Source: a virus. From it: a stretch of DNA of 64,000 nucleotides. Every line of letters begins with the position of its first letter. The stretch's first letter is position 1. Position numbers and translations under genes: made by a program. The stretch is taken from positions 12,525-76,524 of IMG/VR virus record IMGVR_UViG_3300042386_001406. One strand, 5' to 3'. Positions 22,729-55,378 of this stretch are shown piece by piece. The notes beneath the pieces were generated by a model. That model did no database searches. It had not been told where the DNA came from and saw nothing but the letters and a program-made list of their open reading frames with translations.

Positions 22729-24396
22729 ATGAGTCAAATTCAATCTTTAATCGAATCTGCTAACCCATGGCAGTCACAGCAAGGCGAGGCTTCTCGTTTA
22801 GCTAACAAGTGGGAAAAATCAGGTTTGTTAGAAGGTCTTACTGACTACAACAAATCTAATATGGCTGTAATGCTTGAGAACCAAGCTAAGCAATTAGTTG
22901 TTGAACAGTCAAACACTGGAACTGGTGGTACTTTTACTCCAGGAACTGGTGAGCAGTGGGCTGGCGTAGCTTTACCACTCGTTCGTAAGGTATTCGGACA
23001 AATCGCTTCTAAAGAATTCGTTTCTGTACAACCAATGAGCTTACCAGCTGGTTTAGTGTTCTTCTTAGATTTCCAATACGGAACTAATAAAGATCCATTC
23101 ACTTCTGGTAATTCACTTTATGGTACAGCTTACACTCAAGGTGATTCTGGCTTTGGTAACTTAGCTCAGGGTGGTCTTTATGGTGCTGGCCGTTGGGGTT
23201 ATTCAGTTAACCAATTCTCATCTTCATTAACTGGTGCTACATCTGCAGCTGCTGCTACATTTGATGCTATCAACTGGGATTCTGATTATTCTCAGTCTAT
23301 TGTTAATAGCAAGATCATTCAAATTGCTTTCACAACTGGTTCAGCTGGTTTCCCAACTAACTTTGATGTGAATGGTGTTCGTGATCTTTATTTGATCGAT
23401 GGTACTCCTGCTTCTCCAGGAACTGTTATCACTTCAGCTACATTATTACCTCAGTTTACTACAATTGCTGGTGGTACAGTTAAGTTATTCGTAACTGCTT
23501 CTGGTGTTGCTGCTGTTAACGCTATCACAGGTGGTATGACTTTATTCTTCAACAAGAAGACTGCTGATAACGCTCGTGGTGATTTTGAAAATGCTGCTGG
23601 TGCTGGTTATCCAAACGCAGAAAGCAATACAGAAATCGTAATCCCAGAGATCAATGTACAATTACGTTCTGAGACTATTGCTGCTAAAACTCGTAAGTTA
23701 AAAGCACAATGGACTCCAGAATTCGCTCAAGACTTAAACGCTTACCAAAACTTGGATGCTGAAGCTGAATTAACTTCTATGTTATCAGAGTACATCTCTT
23801 TAGAGATCGACTTAGAAATCATGGATATGTTAATCCAGAACGCTCCAATCGTTGAACAATGGTCAGCTAAAGTGGGCGGTACTGTAACTGCAGGTTCATC
23901 TAACATTGCTTACAACACATCAGGTGTTTATTACACTCAGATGACTTGGTTCCAAACTTTAGGTATCAAATTACAAAAAGTTTCTAACCAAATTCACCAA
24001 CGTACTTTACGTGGTGGTGCTAATTTCATGGTAGTTTCTCCAACTGTAGCTACTATCCTTGAGTCAATTCCAGGATTTGCAGCTGATACAGACGGTGCAG
24101 CTGACAACATGAAGTATGCATTCGGCGTACAGAAAATTGGTCAATTAAACAGCCGTTACAAAGTTTACAAGAATCCTTACATGATCGAGAATACTATCTT
24201 AATGGGATTCCGTGGTAACCAATTCTTAGAGACTGGTGCTGTTTATGCTCCATACATTCCGTTAATCATGACTCCATTAGTGTACGATCCAAATACCTTC
24301 ACTCCAAGAAAAGGTATCATGACTCGTTACGCGAAGAAAATGGTACGTCCTGAATTCTACGGTAAGGTATTTATTGCTGACTTACAAGTTATCTAA
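22729..24396 (+). CDS. Major capsid protein (T4 gp23-like)
   Basis: VSVQPMSLPAGLVF, AKTRKLKAQWTPEFAQDL, EIDLEI, YAPYIPL, FTPRKGIMTRY. Confidence 0.97.
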   Translation: MSQIQSLIESANPWQSQQGEASRLANKWEKSGLLEGLTDYNKSNMAVMLENQAKQLVVEQSNTGTGGTFTPGTGEQWAGVALPLVRKVFGQIASKEFVSVQPMSLPAGLVFFLDFQYGTNKDPFTSGNSLYGTAYTQGDSGFGNLAQGGLYGAGRWGYSVNQFSSSLTGATSAAAATFDAINWDSDYSQSIVNSKIIQIAFTTGSAGFPTNFDVNGVRDLYLIDGTPASPGTVITSATLLPQFTTIAGGTVKLFVTASGVAAVNAITGGMTLFFNKKTADNARGDFENAAGAGYPNAESNTEIVIPEINVQLRSETIAAKTRKLKAQWTPEFAQDLNAYQNLDAEAELTSMLSEYISLEIDLEIMDMLIQNAPIVEQWSAKVGGTVTAGSSNIAYNTSGVYYTQMTWFQTLGIKLQKVSNQIHQRTLRGGANFMVVSPTVATILESIPGFAADTDGAADNMKYAFGVQKIGQLNSRYKVYKNPYMIENTILMGFRGNQFLETGAVYAPYIPLIMTPLVYDPNTFTPRKGIMTRYAKKMVRPEFYGKVFIADLQVI

Positions 24397-24418
24397 TAAA
24401 TAACCCTTAGAGTTAAAG

Positions 24419-24451
24419 AAAGACCCGAGCGCAAGCTCGGGTTTTTTCTTT
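24419..24451 (+). terminator. Rho-independent terminator after the capsid gene
   Basis: ACCCGAGC-GCAA-GCTCGGGT plus T run. Confidence 0.85.
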
Positions 24452-24475
24452 CATATTTATAGCAAATAATGTTAT

Positions 24476-25175: not shown

Positions 25176-26816
25176 ATGGCGCAAAACCTTACACAATTAT
25201 ACGGAGCTGGTAACATATCAACTGGATTTGGTTCTTTAACTACAGTTAAAGGCAATACCCCGTTTGGATATTTTGACAATGATACAGAGTTTGTTAGAGA
25301 TGCTAAAAACTGTACTGTATTTGTAGCCCAACGTTTAGGAATTACATCTGGTATTGGTGCTGGTTTATTTTTAAATTTAAGTGATATTGGTGTTTATGCC
25401 GCATTTGAAGAAGCAGTATTAACATATGGTAACATGGTTTACCAATATAAAATCAGAGACAACTATATTAACTTAGAAGGTTCTGAAACAGATGTATTTA
25501 ACCAATCTAGTACAACTTTAATTAATAGTGTTTCTAACAGAACACCTATATTCTGGTCTCCAGCTCGTACTGCTAAATGGGATGAAATTGGAAATGATAC
25601 TTTCTATTCTCAATCTATTGTAGATAGTGAGGTATTTGTAATGTCAGCTTCATTAAGTGACTTTGTTGCTCCAAATTTAGATTTTTTAAATAACTTTACT
25701 TTAGCAGGTGATGCTTTTTATAATGGTAGTAGTAATGTCAATTTATCAAGAGTTGTATTAAATCAATTTAATAAAGTAGCTGGCCCAACTTCTGGATCAA
25801 ACAATATTATAACTAATGGTAGTGACTTTATTTATTTCTTTACTGTTGATCCAGGTGTGAGTGGAGGATATCCATCTCGTTTTAATAACTATTCTACAAA
25901 TGGTATTCCAACAGTTTATTATCAAGCTCGTTTACAAAACGAATTGAATAATAAAGTATTAAATAATAACTTAGCAGCTCAAATTAGAATAGCTGACACT
26001 TATGGAGGTGAAGCTAGTGTAGGTGGTACAGTATTAGAATATACTGGATCACTTACTTTAATTCCTAACCAACAAAATTATGACTTAAATGCTTGGGCCG
26101 CTGATTCTGCCTCATTACAAGATGGAGATTCAATAGAAGTAAGACAAATATTTTATCAAGAACCTCCAGCAATTGTAAGATACTTTGATCCATATGCTGG
26201 TACAGGTACTGGTGTTCAAGGATTACTTGAAACATTTGGATTTGGTTCTTACTCACCTGGTATTAACTTTATGTTAATGCCTGTATATTGGGACATTCAA
26301 AAGATTCAAGCAATTGAATTTAACGACCAAGTAAGAAAATCAGCTTTTAGCTTTGATTTAGTTGATAATCAACTTAGATTATTTCCTGTACCTGGTGACA
26401 TATATATAGGGCATAAATTATGGTTTAGATATGTTAAGAAAATGGATAAAAACAAACCTACAGTTAGTACTGTGAGGAATGTTGTATCTGATGTAATGAG
26501 AGTTCCTTATCGTAATCCAATTTACTCTAATATTAACCATGTAGGTAGAATGTGGGTTTATAGATATACTTTAGCTATCTGTAAAGAAATAGAAGGACAA
26601 GTTAAAACAGCCTTAGATACAGGACAAATTCCAGGTATGTTTAAAGGTACTGAATTATTAACTGATGCTAGACAAGAAAAACAAGACTTAATGACTGAAT
26701 TAAAAGAGATGCTTAATGAAGTTTCTCGTAGAGCTCAATTAGAGCGTAAACAACAAGAGGCTGACTTTACTCGTCAATCAATGAATCAAGTACCATTATT
26801 AATTTACGCTTTATAA
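25176..26816 (+). CDS. Neck/head-tail adaptor (gp13-like) with large insertion
   Basis: Position after the capsid; W..RYTLA..KE..G motif and LL.DA.QEK..L..EL C-terminus. Confidence 0.7.
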
Positions 26817-28831: not shown

Positions 28832-29104
28832 ATGGCAAATTTAATACAAGGATATCAGTTAGACATACCATTTTACCTGAGCGGAAGTTCAGGTACATTT
28901 TTATTTAGTGGGAGTTATGTTGAAATTAATTCTATAACTTCTAGTACTGATTTCTTTATTATTAAAGATAATGGACAACAAGTATTTAAAGTTAACAAAC
29001 AGGGTGTTGTTGAATTTAAAGAGATTTTAAACACACCAACAGTTGTAACTGGAGGTTTATTTTATAGTGCCTCAGATGAATGGTTTTTATATCATAGACA
29101 ATAA
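28832..29104 (+). CDS. Small virion/fibre-associated protein
   Basis: C-terminus similar to that of the 29111 ORF. Confidence 0.55.
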   Translation: MANLIQGYQLDIPFYLSGSSGTFLFSGSYVEINSITSSTDFFIIKDNGQQVFKVNKQGVVEFKEILNTPTVVTGGLFYSASDEWFLYHRQ

Positions 29105-29110: not shown

Positions 29111-29530
29111 ATGGGTACTTTTTTAAAAATAGCGCCCCAATACAGTAATGTTACCTTTAACTCTGTAGAAGCAAGTACAATTATCTCTGCTACTTCAGCT
29201 TCATTTTCTTCAGCATCAGGTTACTTTACAGGTACATTTAGTGGATCATTTATTGGTTTACCTACTAGTAGTAATTTAACACCATTTAGTGTCACCGCCT
29301 CTAAAGGTTATTTAACATATACTAATACATCAACTTTAACAATAGTTAACACTGGGTCTACAGACAATATATTATCTATACAAAACTCAACAGGAAGTGC
29401 GTTTACTATTAATAATCAAGGAGTAGCTATTATGAAAGTATGTACAGGCTCAGCACCTACTCCAGTATTAGGTGGTATTTACTTTGATTCTTACGATATG
29501 TATATTGGAATAGAGGACATAGCTCCTTAA
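29111..29530 (+). CDS. Small Ser/Thr-rich virion protein
   Basis: SGS/TGS-rich; paralogous C-terminus. Confidence 0.55.
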   Translation: MGTFLKIAPQYSNVTFNSVEASTIISATSASFSSASGYFTGTFSGSFIGLPTSSNLTPFSVTASKGYLTYTNTSTLTIVNTGSTDNILSIQNSTGSAFTINNQGVAIMKVCTGSAPTPVLGGIYFDSYDMYIGIEDIAP

Positions 29531-29549: not shown

Positions 29550-30527
29550 ATGGCAGGTTGGAAAAAAATAATAGTATCAGGTAGTAACGCGATACTTAAT
29601 CAATTAAATGTTGGAACTAATCAACAAATTAGTACCTCTCCATCAACTACATTTTTAAGTGGTTCATTTAGTGGATCATTTAGTGGTGTTTTTAGTGGTT
29701 CTACCAACTTACCTGACTTAACTCAAGGTACTGGCATTGTGCCATTTATATATGATGGTAATACTACAGCTACAGTAGCTGTTAGTGGTGCCTCTAGTTT
29801 AAATACTAATGCTATTACAAAGTGGACTGGTGATGCATTTGCTAATTCAAGTTTAACAGATAATGGTACTGTAATATCTGGTTCTACTTCAATTGTATTA
29901 ACCGGCGCTAATTCAAGTTTAACTGGTTCATTTAGTGGATCATTCAAAGGTGATGGTTCAGGATTAACTGGCTTAGCAACAACTTTAACTATAACTGGTT
30001 CAAACGGTTCAAGCGGCTCAGTTAGCTTAGTAACTCAAGGTTTAACAATTACAGGTACAGCTAATGAAATTGAAACTTCAGTTTCTAACCAAACTGTAAC
30101 TATTGGATTACCTAATGATATTATTGTTTCAAATGATTTAACTGTATTAGGTGACTTAACAGTTGCTGGTACAGCTAGTTTTAATAACCAAACATCACTT
30201 TTAATAGCTGATAGATTTGCTTTATTAGCTTCTGGTTCTAACACATTAACAGATGGTGGTTTAATTATAAGTTCAGGTCCAGGATTATCAGGTTCAGCTT
30301 GGTATTTAGAATCAACTTCAACTGGTGATTACGGAAGATGGGCTGTAGCTCCAAATGTTAATGCTGGTGAATCATCAGTAACAGCTGATGAATATGCTGT
30401 AACAGCTAAATTATCAGCTACTTCAGCTCCATCAGATGGTACACCTCCAACATGGGGTGGATCAACAAATGGTAAAGGTAATATCTGGATTAAAGAAGAT
30501 ACAGGTGATATTTATATATGGGCTTAA
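29550..30527 (+). CDS. Fibre-type structural protein
   Basis: WKKIIVSGSNA N-terminus shared with 30908; GSFSGSF repeats. Confidence 0.6.
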   Translation: MAGWKKIIVSGSNAILNQLNVGTNQQISTSPSTTFLSGSFSGSFSGVFSGSTNLPDLTQGTGIVPFIYDGNTTATVAVSGASSLNTNAITKWTGDAFANSSLTDNGTVISGSTSIVLTGANSSLTGSFSGSFKGDGSGLTGLATTLTITGSNGSSGSVSLVTQGLTITGTANEIETSVSNQTVTIGLPNDIIVSNDLTVLGDLTVAGTASFNNQTSLLIADRFALLASGSNTLTDGGLIISSGPGLSGSAWYLESTSTGDYGRWAVAPNVNAGESSVTADEYAVTAKLSATSAPSDGTPPTWGGSTNGKGNIWIKEDTGDIYIWA

Positions 30528-30907: not shown

Positions 30908-33900
30908 ATGCCAAATTGGAAAAAAGTCATTGTTAGTGGCTCAAATGCTACTTTAAACTCTGTAAATGTTACAACAAATGTTGTAGCTCAATCATTCACA
31001 GGCTCCTTACAAGGTACATCAAGTTGGGCTGTAAATGCTTTAACAGCATCTTATGCTGACAACTTCACAGTAGCAGGTACTTTAACAGCCCAAACAATTG
31101 TTGTCCAAACAATAACTTCCAGTACAGACTATGTTACTGGTTCAACCATATTTGGCTCTCAATTATCTAATACCCATCAGTTTACAGGTAGTGTATCAAT
31201 TACAGGTTCATTAACTGTTAATGGAGTAAGTAACTTAACAGCATCAAATGCTATAACAGCATCTTATGCTATAAATGCTTTAACAGCATCATACGCTTTA
31301 ACTGCTTCATTTTCTCAAAATGCTCAAACAGCATCTAATATTCAAGGTGGTGCTACTAACTATATACCTGTATTTAAAACACCTACCTCATTATCTAGTA
31401 GTGTAGTATATCAATCAGGATCTCACATTGGTATTAACATAACTAACTTTACAAGTGGTGACCCTGAAGCATTATATGTTTTCCAAACACATCCTACATC
31501 ATTCAATGTTATAACAGGTAAAGGTAACTCAAATAACTACTTACAACTTAACATACAAAATACTAACACTGGTACCACTGCTTCTTCAGATATTGTAGCT
31601 ACAGCAGACAACGGTACTGAAACTAGTAATTATATTGATATGGGTATCAATGGATCTAATTTCTCAGGTCCAATTGGTGATCCAAATGATGCTTATTTAT
31701 ATTCTGCAGGTAATCACTTACATATTGGTAATATAACACCTGGCCAACCATTACAATTCTTTGTTGGAGGTGATGATACCAATTTAAATAGAAAATTACA
31801 ATTAAACGATAATAACCAGCATAACATGACTGGTTCGTTAAATGTAAGTGGAAGCATTACAGCGTTTAGTTTTACAGGTTCACTACAAGGTACATCTAGT
31901 TGGGCTGAAAATGCTATAACAGCCTCTCACGCTGTAAATGCTTTAAGTGCCTCATATGCTTTAAACGCTACAAATGCTATAAGTGCATCATATGCTATAA
32001 GCGCCTCTCATGCTAACAACGCTACTAGTGCATCATATGCCTTAAATGCTACAAATGCCTCTACAGCATCATATGTTTTAAACGCAGTATCAGCATCATT
32101 TGCTACTACAGCTATAACTGCGTCATATGCTGATAATTTCACAGTAGCAGGTACATTAACTGCTCAAACTATTGTAGTTCAAACAATAACTTCATCTACT
32201 GATTATGTTACTGGTTCAACTATATTTGGTTCTTTACTCTCTAATACTCATCAGTTTACAGGATCTGTAAGTATAACAGGTTCATTATCTGTAAATGGTT
32301 CAAATGTAATTCTTACTAACCAGACATCTTCAATGACTGTGTTAAGTAGTAGTTATGCTATTTCAGCATCATATGCTATAAATGCTGATTTCTTAGATGG
32401 ACAAAATGGTTCAGCATTTGCAACTACTGGTTCAAATATCTTTATTGGTAATCAAACAGTAACTGGTAGTTTATTTACTAATGGATCAAATACATTAGTT
32501 GGTTCTACTACATTAACTGGTAGTTTAAATATAACTGGATCTACTACTCAAACAGGTAATAATACTTTAATTGGTAATACAACATTATCAGGTAGTATTA
32601 TAATATCAGGATCTACTGGACCTGGTGCTGCAACAGCATCAGTACAAATATATGGTGATATTAGACAAACAGGTTATCATAGATTTGATCCTGTAACTAC
32701 AAATATAGATACTTCAATAACTGCATCTTATATTTTTGTAAGTGGATCTACAAACGACTTATATTTTTCTCAAAATAGTGCTGGGTATAGTAACGTAACT
32801 CGTTTACGTTGGTTAGAAGGTAACTTATATACTGGTTTATTAAATGGAGGTTTAATTACAGCTGCTACAGGATCTACTGTTTATCAAGTAAGTAGTGGTA
32901 GTGGTATTATTGTAAACTTAAATGCATCATTAAATGATAATCCGTACCCAACTATTCAGTATCTTAACTGGGGTAATTTATCAGCTAGTATTGCTCCTTT
33001 AACAGCATCATATCAACAAGCTTTCGTTTCTATTGATTCAAGTGGTAATATTTACCAACAAGGAACACCTTATGCCGCAGGACAATTTGACACAGAAATT
33101 AACATAGGTGTTGTATTATTTCAAAACGGATCTACAATTAACGGTGTTAAAACACAGCCTACTGTAGCATACGGTTTTGAACAACAACAAAATATATTTA
33201 ATAGAGCATTTGGACCTTTAAAATTATCAGGATATACTTTAGCACCAAGTGGCTCTTCAACAGGTAGTTTAATAGTAGCAAGCGGTACAGCTTACTCACC
33301 TGGTTCTAACTATCCTATAGATCCAAATAATCCATCCTACACTACTGATAGTGGAACTAATGTATCTAAAATCTTTAGATATAGACAATCAGGTTCTACT
33401 TGGGTATATGATACAAATGCCGGTTTAGGATATGGTGCAATAGACCCAACACAATACTCAGATAATGGTGTACTAACAGCAGTACCAGGAACGGGTATTA
33501 ATAGAGAATTTTCTATTCAAAGAGTATTTTATTTCCCTAACTCAGTTGCAAAAGCTATAGTCGTTTATTATGGTAATGCTACATATGCAAGTCTAGTAGA
33601 TGCAACATCAAATATTGCTTTTGAATCGTTTGTTGAAGCACCAAATACAGCAGCAAACGCAATCTATTTAGGAGCAATTATTGTAAGAAATGACGCTAAT
33701 TTTACAGTTACTGACTCATATGCTATTCAGGCAGGAGGTCTATTTAGATCAGTAGGAGGATCAGGAGGTGGAGGATCAACAATAACTCAAACTCTATCCA
33801 GTTTATCTGATGTACTAATCTCAGGACCTACAAATGGTCAAGCATTAGTTTATGATACAACTGCTGCTAAATGGAGAAACTTATCATCTATTAGTGCTTC

Positions 33901-38607: not shown

Positions 38608-38955
38608 ATGACAGATAATTTATACCCAGATCGCCGTTGGTTAGTAATACCAACAACAATTACAAATTCAATTGATTTTAATCAAGTTGAAGAATCATCT
38701 ATTGACACACTACGTTTGTCTATAGATAAATCAGAGACATTTGTGAAATATCCTGTCACTGTAGTTACAGCATCTTACACACAATCTTATTGGAATCCTG
38801 AAACAATGGAATCAGGAAGCTACATAGTAGAAGCAGGAACATATGGACGTCCAGATATATATTCTCCAGCATATCCAGAATATGAATATCCACCAATGCT
38901 TGAATTATTAGCTACACCAGCTTGGACTTCAGGTAGTATGCCAACAACAATATAA
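38608..38955 (+). CDS. Small virion-associated protein, paralogue of 41129
   Basis: IDFNQVEESS.DTLR.SID.S.TFVK..LATPAW. Confidence 0.65.
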   Translation: MTDNLYPDRRWLVIPTTITNSIDFNQVEESSIDTLRLSIDKSETFVKYPVTVVTASYTQSYWNPETMESGSYIVEAGTYGRPDIYSPAYPEYEYPPMLELLATPAWTSGSMPTTI

Positions 38956-41458: not shown

Positions 41459-44400
41459 ATGGCTAATGAATTTGTTGCTCGCAATGGTATCATTGCGTTG
41501 AATGACTCTCAAATAACCGGATCGTTAAGTGTTGGCAGTAATGTTACTGCCTCTAATGCGCTTATCACAGGTACAATAACTGCCCAAACTTTATTAGTAC
41601 AGAATATTACCTCATCTAGAGATTATGTGACGGGTTCTACTGTATTTGGATCATCACTTTCTAACACACACCAATTTACAGGTTCTGTTTCAATAACAGG
41701 AAGTTTAACTATACCTTCTATTCCACAAGGTACTACTGAAACTAATATATTAGTAATAGATGGTGATGGTGGATTTAAATATAGAAATAATTTAAGTTTA
41801 CAAGGTGCCCAAGGTGCCACTGGACCTCAAGGTGCCCAAGGTGCTGTTGGACCACAGGGAGCTCAAGGAGCCCAAGGTGCTGTTGGTCCACAGGGTATTC
41901 AAGGTATACAAGGAGCCCAAGGTGCAGTTGGGCCTCAAGGTATTCAAGGTATACAAGGAGCCCAAGGGGCTACTGGACCGCAGGGAGCACAAGGCGCTCA
42001 AGGCGCTCAAGGTGCAACAGGACCTCAAGGAGCCCAAGGCGCCCAAGGAGCTACAGGACCCCAAGGTATACAAGGTATACAAGGTATACAAGGCGCACAG
42101 GGTGCAACTGGACCTCAAGGTGCCCAAGGCGCTCAAGGTGCTCAAGGAGCTACAGGCCCACAAGGAGCTCAAGGAGCTACAGGACCCCAAGGTATACAAG
42201 GTATTCAAGGTATTCAAGGTATTCAAGGCGCACAGGGTGCAACTGGACCTCAAGGTGCCCAAGGCGCACAAGGTACACAAGGCGCAACAGGACCTCAAGG
42301 TATTCAAGGTATTCAAGGTATTCAAGGTATTCAAGGCGCCCAAGGTGCTACAGGTCCTCAGGGTGCCCAAGGCGCTCAAGGAGCTCAAGGAGCTACAGGT
42401 CCACAAGGAATCCAAGGTGTACAAGGAGCTCAAGGAGCTACAGGTCCACAAGGAATCCAAGGTGTACAAGGAGCTCAAGGTGCTACAGGACCTCAAGGTA
42501 TTCAAGGTATTCAAGGTGCCCAAGGTGCTACAGGCCCTCAGGGTGCCCAAGGCGCCCAAGGTGCTCAAGGTGCAATTGGACCACAAGGCGCCCAAGGTGC
42601 AACTGGACCAAACGCTGGAATTACTTCATATACAAATCCAGGTGATAATCGTGTTATCACTTCAGTTAACTCATCTACTATTAATGGTGAGGCTAACTTA
42701 TTATTTGATGGTTCAACCTTAAGAATAACAGGATCTTTAATACAATCTGGATCAACAGGTGCTTCATTATATGGAAGTGGTTCAGGTGTATTTACAGTAG
42801 ATGGTACTGTAGGTAGATTATTCCAAGTAGATGATTCACTTACAGGATCATTATTCTCAGTTAATACAGCTGGTGGTTTACCTGTAATAGAAGCCTTCTC
42901 AGACAATACAGTTAAAATTGGTAAATATGGATCTGAAGCGATTGTAATATCTGGTAGTAATAATACAACCCAAATCAGTGGTTCAATTAAATTACCTTCA
43001 TTAGGTTCAACTTCAGACACAACTGTAGTAACATTTAATACTACAACTAAAACAATAGGATATAATACAGTAGCAGGACCTCAGGGAGCCCAAGGCGCAA
43101 CTGGACCTCAAGGCGCCCAAGGTGCTACAGGTCCTCAGGGTGCCCAAGGCGCTCAAGGTGCTCAAGGCGCAACAGGACCTCAAGGTATTCAAGGTATTCA
43201 AGGTGCCCAAGGCGCCCAAGGCGCAACAGGTCCACAAGGTGCTCAAGGTGCCCAAGGCGCTCAGGGCGCGACTGGACCTCAAGGCGCTCAAGGAGCCCAA
43301 GGAGCCCAAGGTGCTCAAGGAGCAACTGGGCCTCAAGGTGCACAAGGCGCTCAGGGAGCCCAAGGCGCGACTGGACCTCAAGGCGCTCAAGGTAACCAAG
43401 GCGCTCAGGGAGCCCAAGGTGCACAAGGTATTCAAGGTATTCAAGGTATTCAAGGAGCTCAAGGTTCACAAGGTGCCCAAGGTTCTCAAGGTGCACAAGG
43501 TGCAACTGGGCCTCAAGGAGCTCAAGGTGCTACTGGTCCAAATGCAGGTATAACTTCATATACAAATCCAGGCGATAATAGAGTATTAACTTCAGTTAAC
43601 TCATCTACTATCAATGCTGAGACAAATTTAACATTTGATGGATCTACATTAACTGTATCTGGAAGTACAGCAAATAAAGTATCAGTTATAGGTTCAGGTA
43701 GTGGTGTAAATACAACTCTATTCTCAGTAGATGGAGCTAATGGTAGATTATTTGAAGTATCAGATGATTTATCTAACTCACTATTTTCAGTTAATACTAT
43801 TGCAGGTATTCCTGTAATTGAAGCATTCGCTGATAATACAGTTAAATTAGGTAAGTTTGGAGCTGAAGCTATTGTAATATCAGGAAGTAACAATACAACT
43901 CAGATTAGTGGTTCTATTAAATTACCGAGTTTAGGATCTACATCTGATACTACAGTTGTTACTTTTAATACAACAACAAAAACTATAGGATATAATACAG
44001 TAGCAGGTCCTCAAGGTGCACAGGGTGCTCAAGGTGCACAGGGTGCTCAAGGTGCTCAAGGTGCTCAAGGTATTCAAGGTATTCAAGGCTCTCAAGGAGC
44101 CCAAGGCTCTCAAGGTGCCCAAGGAGCCCAAGGTGCAACAGGCCCTCAAGGTGCCCAAGGTGCTCAAGGATCTCAAGGTGCACAAGGCGCCCAAGGCGCT
44201 CAAGGCGCGACAGGCCCTCAAGGTGCCCAAGGTGCTCAAGGATCTCAAGGTGCACAAGGCGCACAAGGAGCCCAAGGCGCGACAGGCCCACAAGGTGCTC
44301 AGGGTAGCCAAGGCGCTCAAGGAGCACAGGGTGCCCAGGGAGCATCTGGCGCCACTATCTTAGGTAGTGCTAATACATGGACTGGTGCTAACTATTTCCA

Positions 44401-45418
44401 AAGCAATCTTGGTGGATATGCTGGTGTTTTAAGTAGTCCTCCTCTTCAAGCATATTCAACATCTAACAACTCAGCATTTATGTCTTTTCATAAAGGAGGA
44501 GTATATGCTGTTAATATGGGATTAGATGCTGATGATGTTTTAAGAATTGGTGGATGGAGTGCTTCAGCTAATAGATGGCAACTTGACATGAGCGGTAATA
44601 ATACTGTTGCTAGTTCTTTCAGAGCCCCAATATTCTATGATTCGGATAATACAGGATATTATTTAAATCCAGCTAGTACATCTAATATAAATCAAACCCA
44701 GTTAGACTATAATATGGCTACTGGTGTTGGTAATAATAGTTTTAATGTATCTAAATCTTTACTAGGTAGTATTCATATAGTAAATGGAGCTGGTCCTTCA
44801 TCTGGTGATGGAAGACAAGCAGGTATTACTTTTATGGGAAGTTCAGCTTCAGAAGCTCAAGCTGGTATATATGTTGGTAATAATAACAGTGCTGGTACTT
44901 ACATGGGATTTGCTACAACAGATTCTTATGCTACTGGTCCTCAATTATTCATGTCAGCTTATAATGGTGGATATGTTTACTTTCATAGATCATATGTTGA
45001 AGCTGCGGGTTCATTCCGTGCTCCAATATTCTATGATTCAGCTAATACAGCATATTACTTTGATGGTTCAGCTACAGGTGACTCAATTCGTGTAGCTGGT
45101 GATGTAGTAGCTTATTACTCAGATGAACGTTTAAAAGATATTAAATGTAATATATCAGATGCTTTATCTAAAGTAATGACTTTAAATGGTTTCTATTATG
45201 AACCAAATAAAATAGCTCAGTCATTTGGATATGAGAAAAAATTACAAATAGGTTTATCAGCCCAACAAGTAGAAACTGTTTTACCTGAAGTTATTAAAGA
45301 TGCTCCTATAGGAAATGGATATAAAACATTAGATTATTCTAAATTAGTACCATTACTTATTGAAGCCATCAAAGAACAACAAAAACAAATTGATGAGTTA
45401 AAAACTAAATTAAAATAA
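41459..45418 (+). CDS. Collagen-like tail fibre with C-terminal peptidase S74 chaperone
   Basis: Three Gly-X-Y tracts; [36 protein letters not shown]. Confidence 0.88.
41801..44350 (+). repeat. Collagen GXY tracts (~41801-42610, 43075-43540, 44006-44350) separated by a duplicated spacer domain
   Basis: GAQ/GPQ/GIQ/GAT/GSQ triplets with synonymous codon variation. Confidence 0.9.
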
Positions 45419-47745: not shown

Positions 47746-48096
47746 ATGAATATGACATATACTTTTAGTGTAACTTCATTAGACATTGCTCCAACTGGAA
47801 GTGATGACCATAATGATGTTGTAACTCGCGTACGTTACAACTATAATGGTGTTAGTGACACTGGATATAGTGGATCATTTGCTGGTGTAACACCAATGCC
47901 TACTCCATCTGGAAGTTTTATTCCATTTGAGGATTTAACTGAGGAAGAAGTTATTGATTGGTTAGAAGTTGTTACTACTGGTTCTCAACAACATATGCAA
48001 CAACAAATTCAAAAACAAATCAACAACCAAATAAATCCACAATATGTCCCAGCTCCATTACCATGGCCAACTGGTTCAGTATCTCCAACTCCTTAA
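47746..48096 (+). CDS. Small fibre-associated protein
   Basis: FIPFEDLTEEEVIDWL..PLPW pattern; five [S/T]GS motifs. Confidence 0.55.
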   Translation: MNMTYTFSVTSLDIAPTGSDDHNDVVTRVRYNYNGVSDTGYSGSFAGVTPMPTPSGSFIPFEDLTEEEVIDWLEVVTTGSQQHMQQQIQKQINNQINPQYVPAPLPWPTGSVSPTP

Positions 48097-48113: not shown

Positions 48114-49022
48114 ATGGCTCATGAATCTAACAATGAAAATGTACTATGGTACATTGACTCAATTAATCCAAATGGGGCTACTTATGAAGTAGCTGGATGG
48201 ATTTCTCATAAAACATCAGAAATTATTAGTTTATCATTAGGTGATAAAGATATTAAATACAGTATTGTTTATCGCCCTGATGTGATAGCAGTTTATCCAT
48301 CTTTTAATACTTTTGGTTTTAAATTTACTGCAAATAAAGATGATATTAAAAAACCAATAAATGTTCATTTAAAAAATGAAATAATATATAATGTTGGTAA
48401 TTTAGAATCTCAAGTTATTTTAAAATCAGGTTTTACAAACTCTCCTAAAAGTTTAATTATTGTAGATAATTTTTATAATGATCCTGATATGATCAGAGAT
48501 TATATTATAAAAAATGTAAAATTTGATTTCTCAACATATCATACAGGTAGAAGAAGTTTAGATCGTTTTATATTAGAAGGAACAAAAGAAAAATTTGAAG
48601 AACTTTTAGGTAGACCTATACATAATTGGAATCATCCAACTTATGCAAATGGAAAATTCCAATATTGTACTTCACAAGACCGAGTTGTATATCATATAGA
48701 CACACAGAATTATGCGGCCATGGTGTATTTAACACCAGATGCCCCATTACAAACAGGTACTGCCTCTTATAGAAGTAAATTAACAGGAGCTACTCGTTTT
48801 GAAAATGGAGAGGAAGGAGAGTTATATCAAAAAACATTTAAAGGAGTTAGTAATGAACTAAACTTCTATGATAAATCAACTTGGGAAGAAGTAGATAGAA
48901 TAGCAAATGTATATAATCGTTTAGTTATGTTTGATGCTAAAAGGTTACACTCAGCAACAGAATATTTTGGTGATGCTCTAGAAAATGCTAGACTGTTCCA
49001 TTTATTCTTCTTCGATATTTGA
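48114..49022 (+). CDS. 2OG-Fe(II) oxygenase-like protein with extra N-terminal domain
   Basis: IIVDNFY.DP, YHID, AAMVYLTP, NRLVMFDA..LHSA, RLFHLFFFD. Confidence 0.7.
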   Translation: MAHESNNENVLWYIDSINPNGATYEVAGWISHKTSEIISLSLGDKDIKYSIVYRPDVIAVYPSFNTFGFKFTANKDDIKKPINVHLKNEIIYNVGNLESQVILKSGFTNSPKSLIIVDNFYNDPDMIRDYIIKNVKFDFSTYHTGRRSLDRFILEGTKEKFEELLGRPIHNWNHPTYANGKFQYCTSQDRVVYHIDTQNYAAMVYLTPDAPLQTGTASYRSKLTGATRFENGEEGELYQKTFKGVSNELNFYDKSTWEEVDRIANVYNRLVMFDAKRLHSATEYFGDALENARLFHLFFFDI

Positions 49023-49041
49023 TCGATACTTAAAAATTGTT

Positions 49042-50178
49042 ATGACAAATCCAACTATTTGTTTTGCAACTATTTGCAAAAATGAATCTCACATCATTAA
49101 AAGAACCTTAGAATCTGTATACAAGTATATAAGTTACTGGGTTATATGTGACACTGGCTCTACAGATAATACTAGAGAAATAATTACTGAGTTTTTTAAA
49201 GAAAAAAACATACCAGGAGAACTCCATATTGATGAGTTCAAAGATTTTGGTTATAATAAGAGCTTGTTAATGAAACGAGCTCAATATAAAGCAGATTATA
49301 TTTTACAAATTGACGCTGATGATCCTCTAATTGGTGAGTTTAAATTTACTCAACAAGATGTTGGTCATGATGTTTATTTAGCTAATGTAAAGAGAGGTAC
49401 AACTAATTATAAAGCATTTACTTTATTTAACGCTAAACGCTTATGGAAATTTTGTAGTGTAGCTCATACAGTTATTAAAACTATAGATAATCCTTATTTT
49501 ACAACAGGTGACTTAACCCATTATGATTTTTATGTTTCATCTGAAGATATAGGAGCCAGAAAAGCAGATCCAGAAAAATATCTTAAAGATGCTAAAAAAC
49601 TTAAAAAACAATTTTTTGACACCTTACTTGATGATCCAGATGATTTAAATCTTCGTTCTATTTTCTATACAGCGCAAAGTTATATGGACTATGGAATGCA
49701 TGAAGAAGCAATTAGATGGTATAGATTATATACTAAGATAAGAGGTAATTGGCTTGAAGAACATTTTGAAGCACAATTAAGAATAGCTAATTGTTATATT
49801 AGACTAGATGCTGGTTCTAATTTAATAGAACATGAAATGAAAAAAGCCATTGACATTTATCCAGATAGAGCAGAACCATATTTTATTTTAGGTAATTATT
49901 TTAATAATAAAAAACAATCAGAAAAGGCATATTATTATCTTAAACAAGCTCAATCTAAAGATGTAGAGTTAGTTAAACAAAAATACTTACTATTCATAAA
50001 TGAGTTTAACTATGGAAAGTATGTGAATGATGAATTATCAGTGGCTTGTTATTGGACAGATAGATATGATGAAGGAATAAAACTAATAGAAGAAATCATT
50101 GATGATCCTAAACACAATCATGATAACAAACGATTACTAGATAATTTGAATTTCTTAAAACAAAAAATTAATAAATGA
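49042..50178 (+). CDS. GT2 glycosyltransferase with TPR repeats
   Basis: ICKNE..I..L.S, ICDTGSTD.T, IDADD, then FY.AQSY..P.RAEP TPR helices. Start set at ATG 49042. Confidence 0.85.
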   Translation: MTNPTICFATICKNESHIIKRTLESVYKYISYWVICDTGSTDNTREIITEFFKEKNIPGELHIDEFKDFGYNKSLLMKRAQYKADYILQIDADDPLIGEFKFTQQDVGHDVYLANVKRGTTNYKAFTLFNAKRLWKFCSVAHTVIKTIDNPYFTTGDLTHYDFYVSSEDIGARKADPEKYLKDAKKLKKQFFDTLLDDPDDLNLRSIFYTAQSYMDYGMHEEAIRWYRLYTKIRGNWLEEHFEAQLRIANCYIRLDAGSNLIEHEMKKAIDIYPDRAEPYFILGNYFNNKKQSEKAYYYLKQAQSKDVELVKQKYLLFINEFNYGKYVNDELSVACYWTDRYDEGIKLIEEIIDDPKHNHDNKRLLDNLNFLKQKINK

Positions 50179-51995
50179 TAAAGTTACATTTATTAACTCG
50201 TTGTACTAGATTAAGCAATTTAAGAATCATTAGAGACACTGTATTCCCTAGTCCCTTAGATGTGACATGGCATATAATTTTTGACACTAGTATTGTAAAA
50301 AGTTTTAATAAGGTTTTAATAAATGAATTAAAACAACTTCCAACAAAAATTTATTACATAGAAAGTAATGGTACTGACTATTTGTATCCTCAACTAAGTG
50401 ATATTATAGGTACTATTGATGAAGGATTTGTGAGTATATTAGATGATGATAATATTATACATTCTGATTTTTACAATAAAATTAAAATAGCAATTGAACA
50501 AAATCCAGATAAAAAAGCATTTGTTTATAAACAATATATTGGAGGTAAAGATTTTACAGGCTTAAAAGTTAGAGATATAGGTCCTGAACATATGAAACTC
50601 CAACATATAGATTCAGCTCAATATATAATTGAAGCTAATTTATATAAGACAAGACGATATGAAGAAGGATATGATGCTGATGGTAGATTTATAGAACCAT
50701 TCTATAAAGAACATGCTGATAAATTTTGTTTTGTAGATGAGATATTATGTTATTATAATCATTTAACATTTTCTAGAAAAGCTAATTTACCAAGAATATT
50801 ATATATAGGCCCAGGTTTGCCAGAGCTTAGATCTAAACAGCTTTATAATTATGAGGAAGATAAATTAGATGTTTTTTATACAACAAATGATAACAATATT
50901 GATTCTATTTTAATAAATTATGATCCAAATGCTATTGTCACTATAGGTGAAAAAGATAGTGATTTTCCTAACTTATATAGACAACCAGCTGAAGTAAGAA
51001 AAAAATGGATTCATGCTAAAGATGTTGATTTAGATTTAGGCACTAAAGCATACTATTGCGCTATGATCCAAATGTTAGAAGATAACACATCTGAATTAAT
51101 ATCGTTTTTTACTCCAATTTATAAAACTGGAGAAAAATTATATAGAACATATCAATCATTAGTTGACCAAACTTATAAAAATTGGGAATGGGTTTTAATA
51201 GATGATTCTACAGATGAATTAACAACAAAAATAGCTGAAGAAATAGCGTCAAAAGATCATAGAGTAAAAGTATATAGTTTTAAAGAAAAGAGTAATGGTA
51301 ATATTGGTGATGTAAAATACAGAGCAGCTATGTTATGTAGAGGTTACTTATTAGCCGAATTAGATCATGATGATATATTAACTGAAAAATGTGCTGAGTA
51401 TCTATACATTGCTAGCGAAACATATCCAGATGCTGGTTTCTTTTTTACAGACTGGGCTGAAGTAAGTGAACATATGGATTCATATTGTTATGAAGAAGGA
51501 TTTGGATTAGGATATGGTAGATATAGAGAAGAAAAATATAAAGGGTATATAATAAAAGTATGTGACCAACATAATATCAATCCTAAAACAATACGTCATA
51601 TTGTAGGAATACCTAATCATATTAGAGCATGGAAGCGTGATGTCTATTTATCAATTGGAGGACATAATAGAAATTTAACTGTAGCTGATGATTATGATAT
51701 AGTTATAAGAACATTTCTAAAAACTAAGTTTTGTAAAATACCAAAATTAGGTTATCTTCAATTTATATACTTACACCAGAATAAAACAGATGAAAATAGT
51801 CAAGCAGACTCAAGATCTGATATTCAAAGACGTATTAGAACTATAGCTAATTTTTATAATGATGCTATAAGAAAAAGATTTGAGGAATTAGGTGTTGAAG
51901 ATTGGGCTTATTTAACTAATGGATGTGATATACAAGACATACCTAGTAGATATGGTGATCAAGAAAATTATGTAAATTATATACTTAATATTTAA
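50175..51995 (+). CDS. Tandem two-domain GT2/GT-A glycosyltransferase
   Basis: N-domain ILDDDN..ADG.F; C-domain TPIYK..QTY.NWEWVLIDDS..ELDHDD..ADDYD. Confidence 0.85.
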   Translation: MIKLHLLTRCTRLSNLRIIRDTVFPSPLDVTWHIIFDTSIVKSFNKVLINELKQLPTKIYYIESNGTDYLYPQLSDIIGTIDEGFVSILDDDNIIHSDFYNKIKIAIEQNPDKKAFVYKQYIGGKDFTGLKVRDIGPEHMKLQHIDSAQYIIEANLYKTRRYEEGYDADGRFIEPFYKEHADKFCFVDEILCYYNHLTFSRKANLPRILYIGPGLPELRSKQLYNYEEDKLDVFYTTNDNNIDSILINYDPNAIVTIGEKDSDFPNLYRQPAEVRKKWIHAKDVDLDLGTKAYYCAMIQMLEDNTSELISFFTPIYKTGEKLYRTYQSLVDQTYKNWEWVLIDDSTDELTTKIAEEIASKDHRVKVYSFKEKSNGNIGDVKYRAAMLCRGYLLAELDHDDILTEKCAEYLYIASETYPDAGFFFTDWAEVSEHMDSYCYEEGFGLGYGRYREEKYKGYIIKVCDQHNINPKTIRHIVGIPNHIRAWKRDVYLSIGGHNRNLTVADDYDIVIRTFLKTKFCKIPKLGYLQFIYLHQNKTDENSQADSRSDIQRRIRTIANFYNDAIRKRFEELGVEDWAYLTNGCDIQDIPSRYGDQENYVNYILNI

Positions 51996-51998
51996 AAT

Positions 51999-52586
51999 AT
52001 GTCATTTTTATTTTCAAAAGAATTAAACGATCCTCAAAATTATTATTACTACACAAATGGTTTTAATAGTGAAGAATTAGACAAAGTTTATAAAGATGTA
52101 GCTACATTAGATTTTGAACAAGCAACTACTATAGACTCAAAATCAAATGGTAAAGAAATTAGATCATCATCTGTTAAATGGATACCAAACACATCACAAT
52201 GGAGCTGGTTGTATTTTAAATTAATGGATCTAGCTGTACAAGCTAATAATGCGTTATGGCATTTTGACTTATACTCAGTACAAGATTCAATTCAATATAC
52301 AGAATACTATGCTACAGAAAATGGACATTATACATGGCATCAAGATTTTGGACCAGGTACTCCATCATTAAGAAAAATATCAATCACAGTTCAATTATCA
52401 GGACCTGATGAATATGAAGGTGGTGATTTAGAATATTGGCAAGGCGGAAATAATATTATACAAGCCCCTAAAGATAAAGGTGTTGTATTTATATTTCCAT
52501 CATATATGATGCACCGTGTAACACCAGTAACTAAAGGTATACGTCGATCATTTGTTTTATGGGTAGGAGGAGAACATTATAAATAA
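51999..52586 (+). CDS. 2OG-Fe(II) oxygenase, prolyl hydroxylase-like
   Basis: YTWHQD, RKISITVQLS..YEGGDL, FPS..HRVTPVTKG.R.S.V.W. Confidence 0.88.
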   Translation: MSFLFSKELNDPQNYYYYTNGFNSEELDKVYKDVATLDFEQATTIDSKSNGKEIRSSSVKWIPNTSQWSWLYFKLMDLAVQANNALWHFDLYSVQDSIQYTEYYATENGHYTWHQDFGPGTPSLRKISITVQLSGPDEYEGGDLEYWQGGNNIIQAPKDKGVVFIFPSYMMHRVTPVTKGIRRSFVLWVGGEHYK

Positions 52587-52640: not shown

Positions 52641-52892
52641 ATGGTAACATTTTTAATTCTAGCTGCTGTTATTTCTGTTGTTGTTGGACTTTGGCTTCTT
52701 AATCAAAAACAAAATGAAGAGTTAAAAGAAATTAATAGTAATATTCATCCATTTGTTGATGATCTAGCTCCTGAAGCTACACCAGCTCCAGTAGCTGAAA
52801 GTATTGCTAAGAAAAAAGCCGCTAAGAAAAAACCAACTGTAGTTAAAAAAACACCAGCTAAAAAAGTAGCTAAGAAAACTACTAAAAAATAA
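52641..52892 (+). CDS. Membrane-anchored protein with Lys/Ala-rich tail
   Basis: N-terminal TM; KKKAAKKKP..PAKKVAKK tail. Confidence 0.6.
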   Translation: MVTFLILAAVISVVVGLWLLNQKQNEELKEINSNIHPFVDDLAPEATPAPVAESIAKKKAAKKKPTVVKKTPAKKVAKKTTKK

Positions 52893-53125: not shown

Positions 53126-53156
53126 TATGTATTGTTAGGTGTTAGGAGTTAATATA

Positions 53157-53196
53157 GAAGAAAGCCTCGACAGCAATGTCGGGGCTTCTTCGTTTT
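53157..53196 (+). terminator. Rho-independent terminator
   Basis: AAGCCTCGAC-AGCAAT-GTCGGGGCTT followed by CTTCGTTTT. Confidence 0.7.
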
Positions 53197-53242
53197 ATAA
53201 CACACTCTATATATTTATCAGTAGACAAAATCTATTTAAAAC

Positions 53243-55378
53243 ATGGCGCAAGAAACATTAATTTCTCCAGGCGTACTCGCACGCGAGAATGATTTATCAC
53301 AAATAACACAAGGTCCAGTTACAGTTGGTTTAGCTTTAGTTGGTCCAACAGTTATGGGTCCAGTAAATGTACCTACAGTAGTTACTTCTTTTAGTGACTT
53401 TAAAAACAAATTTGGTGGTATGTTTACTAGTGGTGGAGCTAATTATGAGTTCCTAACATCAATATCTGTTAGAAATTATTTCCAACAAGGTGGTACTACA
53501 GCCTTAATTACTAGGGTAACTAACACTAATTATAGCCCAGCTACATCTAGTGCTATTCCAAATAATATTCCTGGTGCTACAGCTGCTAACGCAGGTGCTT
53601 CTATTGATTTAACAACATCACCTATTTTTAACCTAGTAGCTGCTCGTGTTGATTTAGGATCTACTAGTGTAAATCTTATTGGTACAACATTTGATAATTA
53701 TCAAGTTGATAGTAACGGAAATAAGAGTGTTTTCTTCAACATGTATAATACTTTTACAGTTGATACTTTCGGATACTCAGCTTCAAAAGCAGTTAATGAA
53801 ACTAGCGGATTAAGCATGTTAACTTCTAGTTATAACACTGGTACTAATGTGTTAATTATTAGTGCTTCTTCAGCTGGTGCTGCAGCTAACAGTTGGACAA
53901 TGTATGCTGGTCAATATTATTTCTATGAAAATTCATTCTTCCCACTTAGTGGTTCATTTACAGGTGGTGTTGATGGTAGTGGCCAACCAACATTTGTATT
54001 AGAAACTTTATCTACTGGTATTTTAATGAACAACTCAGGTTCTATTTTATCTGATAATTCATTAATAAGTGGTTCAACAGATAATTTAAGATGGGAAATT
54101 CAAAATGCTAATACTTCAAGTGGTACATTTACATTATTAGTTCGTCAAGGTAATGACAATCAAAACAGTAAAATTGTTTTAGAAACATATTCTAATGTTT
54201 CATTGGATCCAAATCAACCTAACTATTTAGAGGCTGTTGTTGGTAACCAATCAAAAACTGCTGTTAAAGATGCTGATGGTCAATATTATATTCAAGTATC
54301 TGGTGACTATCCAAATAATAGCCGCTATGTACGTGTAAAACAAGTTAACTACACAACTCCAAACTACTTTGATAATGCTGGAAATGCCAAAAACGAATAC
54401 ACACAATCAATACCAGTAAATGGTAGTGGTTCTCAAGGTGGTGCTTTTGGTGGTGCCTCTGGTAATGACTTAAATAATATTGGTAACACATTATTTACTA
54501 ACATTGGTTCAACAACTCAAGGTTTAGTTCAAGGTAACTATGCTACAGCTTCTGCTTTATTAAGCAATAAAGATGAATTTGATTTCAATTTAGTAGCTAC
54601 TCCAGGTTTGATCCAATCATTACACTCTTCAGCAGTAGGTAATTTTATCAGTTTAGCTGAAGAAAGAGGTGATTGTTTCTACATCACTGACTTGTCACCA
54701 TATGGTGTTACACTTAAAACTGTAACTAACCAAGCAGCTGGTTTAGATACTAACTATGCTGGTGTTTACTGGCCTTGGGTTCAAGTAATATCTCAAGAAA
54801 CTGGTAAGCGTGTATGGGTTCCAGCTTCAACAATCATGCCAGGTGTATATGCATTTAATGATAATGTGAGTGCTGAATGGTTTGCTCCAGCTGGTTTAAC
54901 AAGAGGTGGATTAGGTAATGTATTACAAGCTGAAAGAAAATTATCTCCAACAGATCGTGATAATCTATATGCTGGTAAAGTTAATCCAATTGCTACTTTC
55001 CCTAATATTGGTGTAGCTGCATTTGGTCAGAAAACATTACAGAAAAAAGCTAGTGCTTTAGATCGTATCAACGTTCGTCGTCTATTAATTGCTCTTAAGC
55101 GTTACATTGGTAATGTATCTGAAAACTTAGTATTCGAACAAAATACAGCTGTAACTCGTAATGCGTTCTTAGCTCAAGTTACTCCATACTTAGAAAGTGT
55201 ACAACAACGTCAAGGTTTATACGCGTTTAAAGTAGTAATGGATGAATCAAATAACACTCCAGATGTAATTGATCGTAACCAATTAGTAGGTCAGATCTAT
55301 TTACAACCAACTAAGACTGCTGAATTTATCTTATTAGATTTCAACATCTTACCAACTGGTGTAGAATTCGGTTCATAA
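53243..55378 (+). CDS. Tail sheath protein (gp18-like)
   Basis: SPGV..RE.D, YWPWV, WFAPAG..RG, GQKTLQ..SALDRINVRRL, QPTKTAEFI. Confidence 0.95.
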   Translation: MAQETLISPGVLARENDLSQITQGPVTVGLALVGPTVMGPVNVPTVVTSFSDFKNKFGGMFTSGGANYEFLTSISVRNYFQQGGTTALITRVTNTNYSPATSSAIPNNIPGATAANAGASIDLTTSPIFNLVAARVDLGSTSVNLIGTTFDNYQVDSNGNKSVFFNMYNTFTVDTFGYSASKAVNETSGLSMLTSSYNTGTNVLIISASSAGAAANSWTMYAGQYYFYENSFFPLSGSFTGGVDGSGQPTFVLETLSTGILMNNSGSILSDNSLISGSTDNLRWEIQNANTSSGTFTLLVRQGNDNQNSKIVLETYSNVSLDPNQPNYLEAVVGNQSKTAVKDADGQYYIQVSGDYPNNSRYVRVKQVNYTTPNYFDNAGNAKNEYTQSIPVNGSGSQGGAFGGASGNDLNNIGNTLFTNIGSTTQGLVQGNYATASALLSNKDEFDFNLVATPGLIQSLHSSAVGNFISLAEERGDCFYITDLSPYGVTLKTVTNQAAGLDTNYAGVYWPWVQVISQETGKRVWVPASTIMPGVYAFNDNVSAEWFAPAGLTRGGLGNVLQAERKLSPTDRDNLYAGKVNPIATFPNIGVAAFGQKTLQKKASALDRINVRRLLIALKRYIGNVSENLVFEQNTAVTRNAFLAQVTPYLESVQQRQGLYAFKVVMDESNNTPDVIDRNQLVGQIYLQPTKTAEFILLDFNILPTGVEFGS

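Follow-up and report, generated by a model that had tools for sequence, protein, structure and literature searches.

Virion O-glycosylation by phage-encoded glycosyltransferases (GTs) has been described for the cluster F1 mycobacteriophages Che8 and Rita (Freeman et al. 2023, as cited in PMC11256854). Related chemistry is known from bacterial surfaces: GmaR, the flagellin O-linked N-acetylglucosamine (O-GlcNAc) transferase of Listeria monocytogenes, is a cytoplasmic enzyme that acts on Ser/Thr residues of a surface filament protein, S-A-S and S-x-S are O-GlcNAc acceptors in the serine-rich repeat adhesins Fap1/GspB (modified by GtfA/B and then GalT1), and D-[S/T]-[A/I/L/V/M/T] is a three-residue O-glycosylation sequon of the Bacteroidota. 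To our knowledge, some mycobacteriophages are the only phages whose own enzymes have been shown to glycosylate the virion. Here we analyze a short motif, [S/T]-[G/A]-S, in the outer virion proteins encoded by a 64-kb stretch of viral DNA (IMG/VR record IMGVR_UViG_3300042386_001406, positions 12,525 to 76,524; this whole stretch is called the window) and in the homologous proteins of related phages. The results establish that this word, placed between hydrophobic residues in an uncharged context, is a lineage-specific directional motif that is kept by selection on outward-facing virion domains. It could be an acceptor signal for O-glycosylation with soluble phage GTs as the writers, a reading drawn from sequence comparison that we favour tentatively and place just short of an even balance.

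The window is part of a 76.5-kb viral contig that is ~48% complete, has a GC content of ~32% and carries nearly all of its genes on the + strand. Its T4-like structural module comprises the gene of the major capsid protein (MCP) at 22729, PhoH, a block of fibre genes, LamG-like tip proteins, a collagen-like fibre (41459), an enzyme cassette (46364-52586), the tail sheath (53243) and the tube and baseplate genes; proteins are referred to below by the position at which their genes start. The closest named relative is Flavobacterium phage vB_FspM_immuto (immuto hereafter; MCP identity 56%, syntenic), and the second is Microcystis phage Mel-JY01 (MCP identity 50%). Together with the window phage and many uncultured relatives they make up a clade of aquatic T4-like phages. 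We have collected 81 sheath and 80 MCP homologues from viral contigs, counted the location of the sites in 71 MCP homologues and scored the sequence context on 441 non-redundant motif sites. Whole-protein, local 15-aa and within-domain shuffles served as controls, together with a mirror tripeptide of equal composition and matched control tripeptides; unless stated otherwise, paired counts are observed vs expected.

A comparison of the proteins encoded in the window revealed a highly uneven distribution of the motif, with 130 sites in the 5,374 aa of ten outer virion proteins and 12 in the 15,039 aa of all others. A preliminary description of this DNA had pointed to the wider form [S/T]-[G/A/Q/S]-S, and all of the instances that it listed were found. 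These include SSS164, SQS188, TGS203 and TAS256 in the MCP, SQS, SAS, SGS, TGS and SAS in 25176, 11 sites in the sheath, TASYTQS and two SGS in 38608, five sites in 47746 and 79 in the long fibre 30908. Relative to whole-protein shuffles the wider form is in excess in 28832 (4 vs 0.44), 29111 (8 vs 2.2), 29550 (12 vs 5.7), 30908 (79 vs 23, z 12), the sheath (11 vs 3.7), 38608 (4 vs 0.5), 47746 (5 vs 0.56) and 25176 (5 vs 1.4, p 0.02); the window MCP by itself shows no significant excess (4 vs 2.1, p 0.15). The enrichment is carried by a G or A in the middle, and [ST]QS (z 0.4) and [ST]SS (z -1.0), for which there was none, were dropped from the motif. What remains is a signal of [ST][GA]S with hydrophobic neighbours, which reaches z 5-6 outside the two giant fibres and z ~22 in 30908, and which persists under local 15-aa shuffles. 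The preliminary description had also called the motif scarce in the terminase, portal, protease, scaffold and enzymes. In the window, the terminase, portal, protease and scaffold indeed have no motif sites, but the non-structural set as a whole is merely at expectation (9 vs 10.2), without depletion.

A motif-agnostic ranking of all tripeptides in the window is led by PTP and TPT, with SGS and GSF in third and fourth place. The motif is encoded by 62 distinct 9-mers and its Ser codon usage equals that elsewhere. A DNA-level origin was ruled out on these grounds, and the diversity of the motif codons places the effect at the level of the protein. Chance, or a compositional artefact of low-complexity segments rich in S, T and G, would be the simplest alternative. 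S, T, G and A are abundant in the outer proteins, some of the sites belong to tandem repeats and shared modules, and the MCP of the window is not significant when taken alone. Nevertheless, the S/T/G content fails to explain the enrichment: an artefact is rejected by the 15-aa shuffles, by the within-domain shuffles, under which a ~4-fold excess remains, by the mirror tripeptide, which is not enriched, and by the retention test given below, and each of the 81 sheath homologues lies above its own expectation (81/81). We consider this explanation very improbable indeed.

The excess is found throughout the clade. The sheath homologues hold 671 sites vs 190 expected and the MCP homologues 410 vs 126, or 250 vs 41 when a hydrophobic residue in front is required. 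Low totals were obtained for the families of the portal (5 vs 20), the protease (0 vs 17), the tube (0 vs 8.8) and 27588 (6 vs 22). Within the two large families the sites are confined to particular parts of the protein. In the MCP, 354/363 instances of [ST][GA]S fall inside the insertion domain; for the window MCP (Gp23 family, 22729..24396, + strand; Pfam PF07068, E 3e-78) this surface domain spans aa 121-290 (nt ~23089-23598). In the sheath homologues the sites are restricted to residues 63-435, and the window sheath (53243..55378, + strand; Pfam sheath domains) has all 11 of its sites at aa 101-435 (nt ~53543-54547), in accessory outer domains. An AlphaFold2 (AF2) model of this sheath, with a predicted local distance difference test score (pLDDT) of 78, adopts the canonical contractile-sheath fold. 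As just ~300 of its residues align with minimal sheaths, the motif-bearing part is accessory; as in solved sheaths, it would face outward. By analogy with solved T4-type structures the sites of both proteins, in the MCP insertion domain and the accessory sheath domains, are probably exposed on the particle exterior rather than buried. In a number of viral contigs (L041, L043, L063, L078) and in LR756508 (L186, L188) the sheath is encoded by two tandem paralogues, an unusual gene duplication; in the clade contigs both copies are motif-enriched.

The restriction to these domains does not follow from their composition. Within-domain shuffles give a ~4-fold excess (MCP insertion 354 vs 85.5, sheath outer domains 640 vs 160), which rises to 5-9-fold with a hydrophobic residue at -1 (MCP insertion 216 vs 24.4). 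The conserved cores of these proteins lie below expectation (8 vs 25.8 and 2 vs 28.8), a contrast that is inflated by relatedness. Moreover, the motif has a direction. T[GA]S outnumbers its mirror S[GA]T in the MCP insertion (137 vs 49), in the sheath outer domains (245 vs 102) and in fibre 30908 (44 vs 3), and the ratio flips in the MCP core (1 vs 24). The third position (+2) demands Ser, not Thr. Around the 441 sites, hydrophobic residues are in excess at -3 to -1 and +3, K/R hardly occur between -2 and +6, and acidic residues drop to 0.3x background at -1. The motif thus combines an excess over composition, directionality and position-specific residue requirements, as a sequon does.

The individual sites turn over. 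Five columns of the sheath alignment are conserved at 64-71%, and ~4.9 more sites per sequence are spread over ~89 low-frequency columns. Homologues with 30-60% domain identity keep the motif class in 34-36% of comparisons vs 3-20% for composition-matched tripeptides, a retention that is ~6-fold better than that of the controls, and S/T or G/A swaps account for half of the cases in which it is kept. In the AF2 model the 11 sites of the window sheath lie in strands, helices and loops alike, and because of this mixed secondary structure no single structural role fits them. The preliminary description had spoken of a selected, enzyme-recognised site. A selected short linear motif is indeed what we see (directional, Ser at +2, conserved as a class, with positional turnover), and its recognition by an enzyme is plausible as far as the sequences go. 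Selection might also act on a surface property or another modification, such as hydroxyl arrays for hydration, adhesion to host polysaccharide or mucus, phosphorylation or acylation. The surface restriction, the turnover at kept density and the uncharged context would fit any selected surface property equally. On the other hand, a generic hydroxyl surface would have no need of a fixed direction or of Ser over Thr at +2. Pfam comparisons of the window gave no candidate kinase or acyltransferase, and it is GT-rich islands that are conserved in the clade; we regard such a property as quite unlikely to be the cause.

The other carriers, all encoded on the + strand, add further families to the MCP and the sheath. 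Protein 25176 (25176..26816, 546 aa) has an insertion segment that is homologous to part of the MCP insertion domain over ~75 aa (hhalign probability 88.6%, E 2.6e-6), and the total of its family is 55 vs 11.2. It had been labelled 'neck', a putative role for which no Pfam or PHROG match was found. A gp24-like full-length MCP paralogue was ruled out, since the alignment covers just these ~75 aa, and so was orthology with the 546-aa gene that follows the MCP in immuto (L001:18874-20514). The latter encodes an unrelated repeat protein with repeated domains and a recurring PTGLPxGVTASW-type segment. The fibre gene block encodes two small motif-rich proteins, 28832 (28832..29104, 90 aa; family total 18 vs 1.3) and 29111 (29111..29530, 139 aa; family total 40 vs 6.1). 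The small protein 38608 (38608..38955, 115 aa) has a paralogue, 41129, with just 1 site. Within the enzyme cassette lies 47746 (47746..48096; DUF7936, Pfam PF25590, E 5e-18), and in its family (26 homologues aligned) YSGSF, PSGSF and a C-terminal P[ST]GS are conserved. For 47746, a putative virion protein, no match to a family of known function was found.

Three further carriers are fibres. The fibre-type protein 29550 (29550..30527, 325 aa; PHROG baseplate wedge, E 6e-12) contains SGSF-type repeats, and its motif positions are invariant across 7 homologues; its AF2 monomer model has a pLDDT of 41.5, too low for use. The long fibre 30908 (30908..35284, 1,458 aa) carries 6- and 9-residue tandem repeats (TGSxxI; [ST]ASYALNAx). 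The collagen-like fibre 41459 (41459..45418; Pfam Collagen, E 3e-82, and Peptidase_S74) ends in an endosialidase-chaperone C-terminus and has 17 motif sites in its non-collagen spacers. These fibres are related: 29550 and 30908 have their N-terminus in common (BLAST), and 30908 and 41459 share a module that is present in three copies in 30908. The 'unrelated folds' of the preliminary description are thus fewer than proposed, given the kinship of the MCP with 25176, of the three fibres with each other and of 38608 with 41129. The sheath outer domains are unrelated to the MCP/25176 insertion, and enrichment beyond composition occurs in at least four unrelated families, i.e. the MCP/25176 insertion, the sheath outer domains, the fibre family and the small proteins including DUF7936.

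In the fibres the motif could be part of a structural grammar, that is, a packing or turn word in which the small G/A points inward between hydrophobic residues and the S/T hydroxyls point outward, never to be modified. Its setting would be beta-rich surface domains and trimeric fibre shafts, as in silk or the corners of beta-solenoids. The fibre repeats plainly follow such a grammar: the motif recurs at a fixed phase of the 6- and 9-residue repeats of 30908, where 43/51 short motif spacings are multiples of 3. The invariant positions in the 29550 family and the conserved ones in DUF7936 are in line with it, as are the hydrophobic residues at -1 and +3, which fit an alternating beta-strand, and the several sheath and MCP columns that are 60-77% conserved. 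Part of the apparent convergence, moreover, is shared ancestry. However, fixed-phase tandem periodicity is seen in the fibres only and not in the MCP or the sheath. In the sheath the sites occupy all kinds of secondary structure and most of them shift position while density is kept. The mirror word would have the same in/out pattern and is not enriched, the conserved cores of the same proteins are without the motif even if relatedness inflates those counts, and homologous folds of other phages do without it, as described next. Taken for all carriers, we consider a purely structural word doubtful, though it deserves serious weight.

The excess is restricted to the lineage. In T4 the virion proteins have fewer motif sites than expected (14 vs 25.7) and the fibres are without the word, and for RM378, LR756508 and LR756511 the counts in the MCPs or sheaths match expectation. 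An excess is seen in Mel-JY01, both in the MCP (4 vs 1.4, with every site in the insertion domain) and in the sheath (7 vs 1.9). In LR756508 a homologous insertion domain is present that is acid-rich and motif-free. The motif column that is most conserved in the MCP (TAS256 of the window, 23494-23502; 77% of the clade) reads TGS in the non-enriched RM378 (L181, aa 227). This column probably predates the clade-wide excess, and its role may be structural.

As to the writer, the preliminary description had assigned the motif to the GT2 enzymes of the window. These belong to a soluble modification cassette (48114..52586, + strand; Pfam) that encodes a DUF6445 (oxygenase-like) protein, a GT2 with tetratricopeptide-like repeats (GT2-TPR; 48985-50178, + strand; PF00535, E 3e-8), a 606-aa GT2 (50175-51995, + strand), for which the best solved relative is GalT1 (E 8.5e-10), and a 2-oxoglutarate-Fe(II) oxygenase resembling prolyl 4-hydroxylase (P4H) (51999-52586, + strand; Pfam). 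The DxD motif is kept in both GT2s (DAD at residues 110-112 in 48985) and no transmembrane segments are predicted in the cassette enzymes. The C-terminus of 48985 matches TPR_17 and TPR_2 at E ~1e-3, below the Pfam cut-offs, and a designed TPR in the PDB at E 2e-3. At the end of the cassette lies an 83-aa open reading frame (52641-52892), for which, alone among the cassette proteins, a membrane or signal-like segment is predicted at the N-terminus (aa 1-23). No homologue of 48985 was found in immuto or in the complete or large clade genomes G006-G010; immuto and three complete clade genomes without it show the same motif excess, and the motif density of the sheath is equal with or without the cassette nearby. 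Because relatives that lack it have the same excess, the cassette cannot explain the clade-wide motif and was ruled out as the clade-wide writer. The assignment made in the preliminary description could thus not be upheld; the GT2 cassette is unlikely to write the motif and may instead be an accessory of the sub-lineage that extends the glycan or serves other substrates.

Such substrates can be named. The strongest tripeptide outliers of the window, PTP and TPT (32 vs 2.4), come from the (TP)n/(PT)n linkers of 26821 (aa 27-90, 26899-27090) and 45426 (aa 146-176, 45861-45953). PT linkers are classic targets of O-glycosylation or hydroxylation, and these linkers may for that reason be a substrate of the cassette. 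A second candidate is the collagen-like fibre, which lies just upstream and contains 181 Gxx triplets, including 28 G-x-T, and 33 G-P-x triplets. Precedents are the G-x-T glycosylation of BclA-type collagen-like proteins, the glycosylation of collagen hydroxylysine in mimivirus and the prolyl 4-hydroxylase of chloroviruses. Whether the cassette acts on G-x-T and hydroxylated Pro/Lys of this fibre and/or on the (PT)n linkers, and not on [ST][GA]S, is to our mind an evenly balanced question. The pairing of the P4H-like oxygenase and DUF6445 with GTs is in favour, as is the excess of [ST][GA]S in the cassette-free members of the clade. Moreover, (PT)n runs occur only in the nearest relatives of the window, the sub-lineage that also has the P4H/GT cassette. 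Against it, contig L057 has the cassette adjoining the sheath gene and no (PT)n protein in the fetched flanks, and GmaR, the closest solved relative of 48985, targets Ser/Thr of a folded filament protein.

A different enzyme follows the excess across the clade. A GT2 of 207 aa is present in immuto, in the clade genomes G002 and G006-G009 and in Mel-JY01, and is absent from RM378, LR756508, LR756511 and T4, i.e. it occurs in 7 enriched genomes, with every complete genome of the enriched group among its carriers, and in 0/4 non-enriched genomes. Among 50,697 phage records it was found in immuto and Mel-JY01 only, and a search of viral contigs for the enzyme in independent lineages returned only immuto-like matches (64-100% identity). 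Its conserved partner is a GT2 of ~420 aa. Both reside in islands that also hold GT2-GT10 and FkbM-GT2 fusions, and the complete clade genomes have 2-5 GT2 genes each. In immuto the island encodes five GTs, two WecE-type aminotransferases, an epimerase, a methyltransferase and a PglB-like protein, all of them soluble. The fusion enzymes were seen in clade genomes at L168:385-2028 (- strand) and L086:673-2694 (+ strand), as a GT2 with a C-terminal GT10 (fucosyltransferase-like) domain and an FkbM methyltransferase joined to a GT2; they suggest a multi-sugar, methylated glycan. In Mel-JY01 (L271, PP395634.1 3065-8430) a structural gene that contains the fibre module of the window is directly followed by a 1,226-aa 'FkbM methyltransferase' gene with a GT1 domain, which places sugar-tailoring enzymes within the fibre neighbourhood of this phage. 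Immuto could not be used as a GT-free control, as it has GT2 genes, and the presence of any GT at all was ruled out as a predictor, given that RM378 and LR756508 have GT1/GT4 without motif excess.

The DNA of immuto contains, according to liquid chromatography-mass spectrometry, dA, dC, dT and a formylated 7-deazaguanine, and no glycosylated base (bioRxiv 10.1101/2023.04.13.536721). This speaks against DNA as the target of the GTs of immuto. We would propose that the motif is the acceptor signal for O-glycosylation of Ser/Thr, that soluble phage-encoded GTs would act in the cytoplasm on newly made virion proteins and that the particle would thereby gain a sugar coat. As the writer, the glycan island of the clade (the 207-aa GT2, the ~420-aa GT2 and enzymes that tailor sugars) would be more likely than the window cassette with its GT2-TPR and GT2. 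That the motif is modified, and at which residue and by which enzyme, is what we infer. The capsid glycosylation of mycobacteriophages is a precedent. The enzymes of the islands and of the window cassette are all soluble, and 48985 is, by its sequence, closest to a flagellin O-GlcNAc transferase. Extended to the clade, the proposal is that a genuine O-glycosylation sequon is in use and that soluble phage GTs coat capsid, sheath and fibres with a phage-made glycan from variable sugar islands, which we would put at somewhat less than even.

Several observations weigh against this proposal. The match between the 207-aa GT2 and the excess is perfect over the 7 and 4 genomes; yet it is a single phylogenetic event and compatible with one gain. 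In the best MCP tree LR756508 is nested beside Mel-JY01, but the approximately unbiased (AU) test does not reject a placement outside (p 0.31), and an independent co-loss in LR756508 was accordingly not established. The non-enriched outgroups carry GT1/GT4 enzymes, and the 207-aa GT2 was not seen in the contig of the window, which is ~48% complete. A structural repeat would look like the motif in the fibres, where it keeps the phase of the 6- and 9-residue repeats and does not vary among the 29550 homologues, and the hydrophobic flanks fit a beta-strand packing pattern. The cytoplasmic bacterial O-GTs known to us are mostly without strict sequons. Soluble GTs without transmembrane segments also build lipopolysaccharide (LPS) and O-antigen on lipid carriers. 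A gene for an LptF-like LPS-export permease (L184:19940-20001, immuto 65.9 kb) lies ~6 kb from the glycan island of immuto, which leaves room for an island that acts on the host envelope. In the literature on this clade no paper was found that reports a glycan on capsid or tail proteins, and the papers on Jabs and HFTV1 add no glycosylation sites.

If the motif is a true sequon, sugar coats would be common in aquatic T4-like phages and predictable from sequence. The coats would then matter for the adsorption and stability of the particle and for its protection from grazers, enzymes or antibodies, and no earlier sequon-directed system of virion glycosylation would be known from tailed phages whose hosts are Gram-negative bacteria or cyanobacteria. 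The cultured immuto and Mel-JY01 make this reading directly testable. Otherwise the word remains a remarkably clean example of a lineage-specific, directional motif selected on virion surfaces, which would call for a structural explanation.

The motif can be compared with several known systems. In 30908, 29550 and the spacers of 41459, small residues recur at a fixed phase of short tandem repeats (6 and 9 residues), a periodicity that resembles that of trimeric fibre shafts (triple beta-helix or beta-solenoid); unlike in such shafts, the word also gathers in globular surface domains of capsid and sheath that lack periodicity, and T4 fibres do without it. The Bacteroidota sequon is likewise three residues long and is found in the phylum of the likely hosts (Flavobacterium). 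However, it is periplasmic and requires Asp at -1, whereas the proteins studied here are cytoplasmic and their sites have few acidic residues at -1, from which it follows that the motif is not D-[ST]-x; one host of the clade, moreover, is a cyanobacterium. With the serine-rich repeat adhesins the motif shares the S-A-S and S-x-S words, and GalT1 is the nearest solved relative of 50175. Those repeats are long, disordered and of low complexity, whereas here the word has hydrophobic neighbours and belongs to folded domains or to 6/9-residue repeats; (SX)n arrays were not found, and no GtfA/B-type pair was seen in the window.

GmaR is the best solved match of 48985 (E 4.4e-7, GT-A domain), and the two would have the same order of an N-terminal GT2 followed by TPR-like repeats, which in 48985 are putative. 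The similarity extends over just ~95 residues, the TPR matches are below threshold and 48985 is not conserved in the motif clade. The precedent for virion glycosylation is that of the mycobacteriophages Che8 and Rita. As there, the enzymes are phage-encoded, soluble and of the GT2 type, capsid and tail proteins are the proposed substrates and a glycan shield is the proposed outcome. We know of no hydrophobic-[ST]-[GA]-S word reported for the mycobacteriophage system. The glycans of Che8 and Rita have been shown chemically, whereas those of the aquatic T4-like myovirus analyzed here are predicted from sequence, and here, unlike in the mycobacteriophages, the motif is spread over insertion domains, outer domains and fibres.

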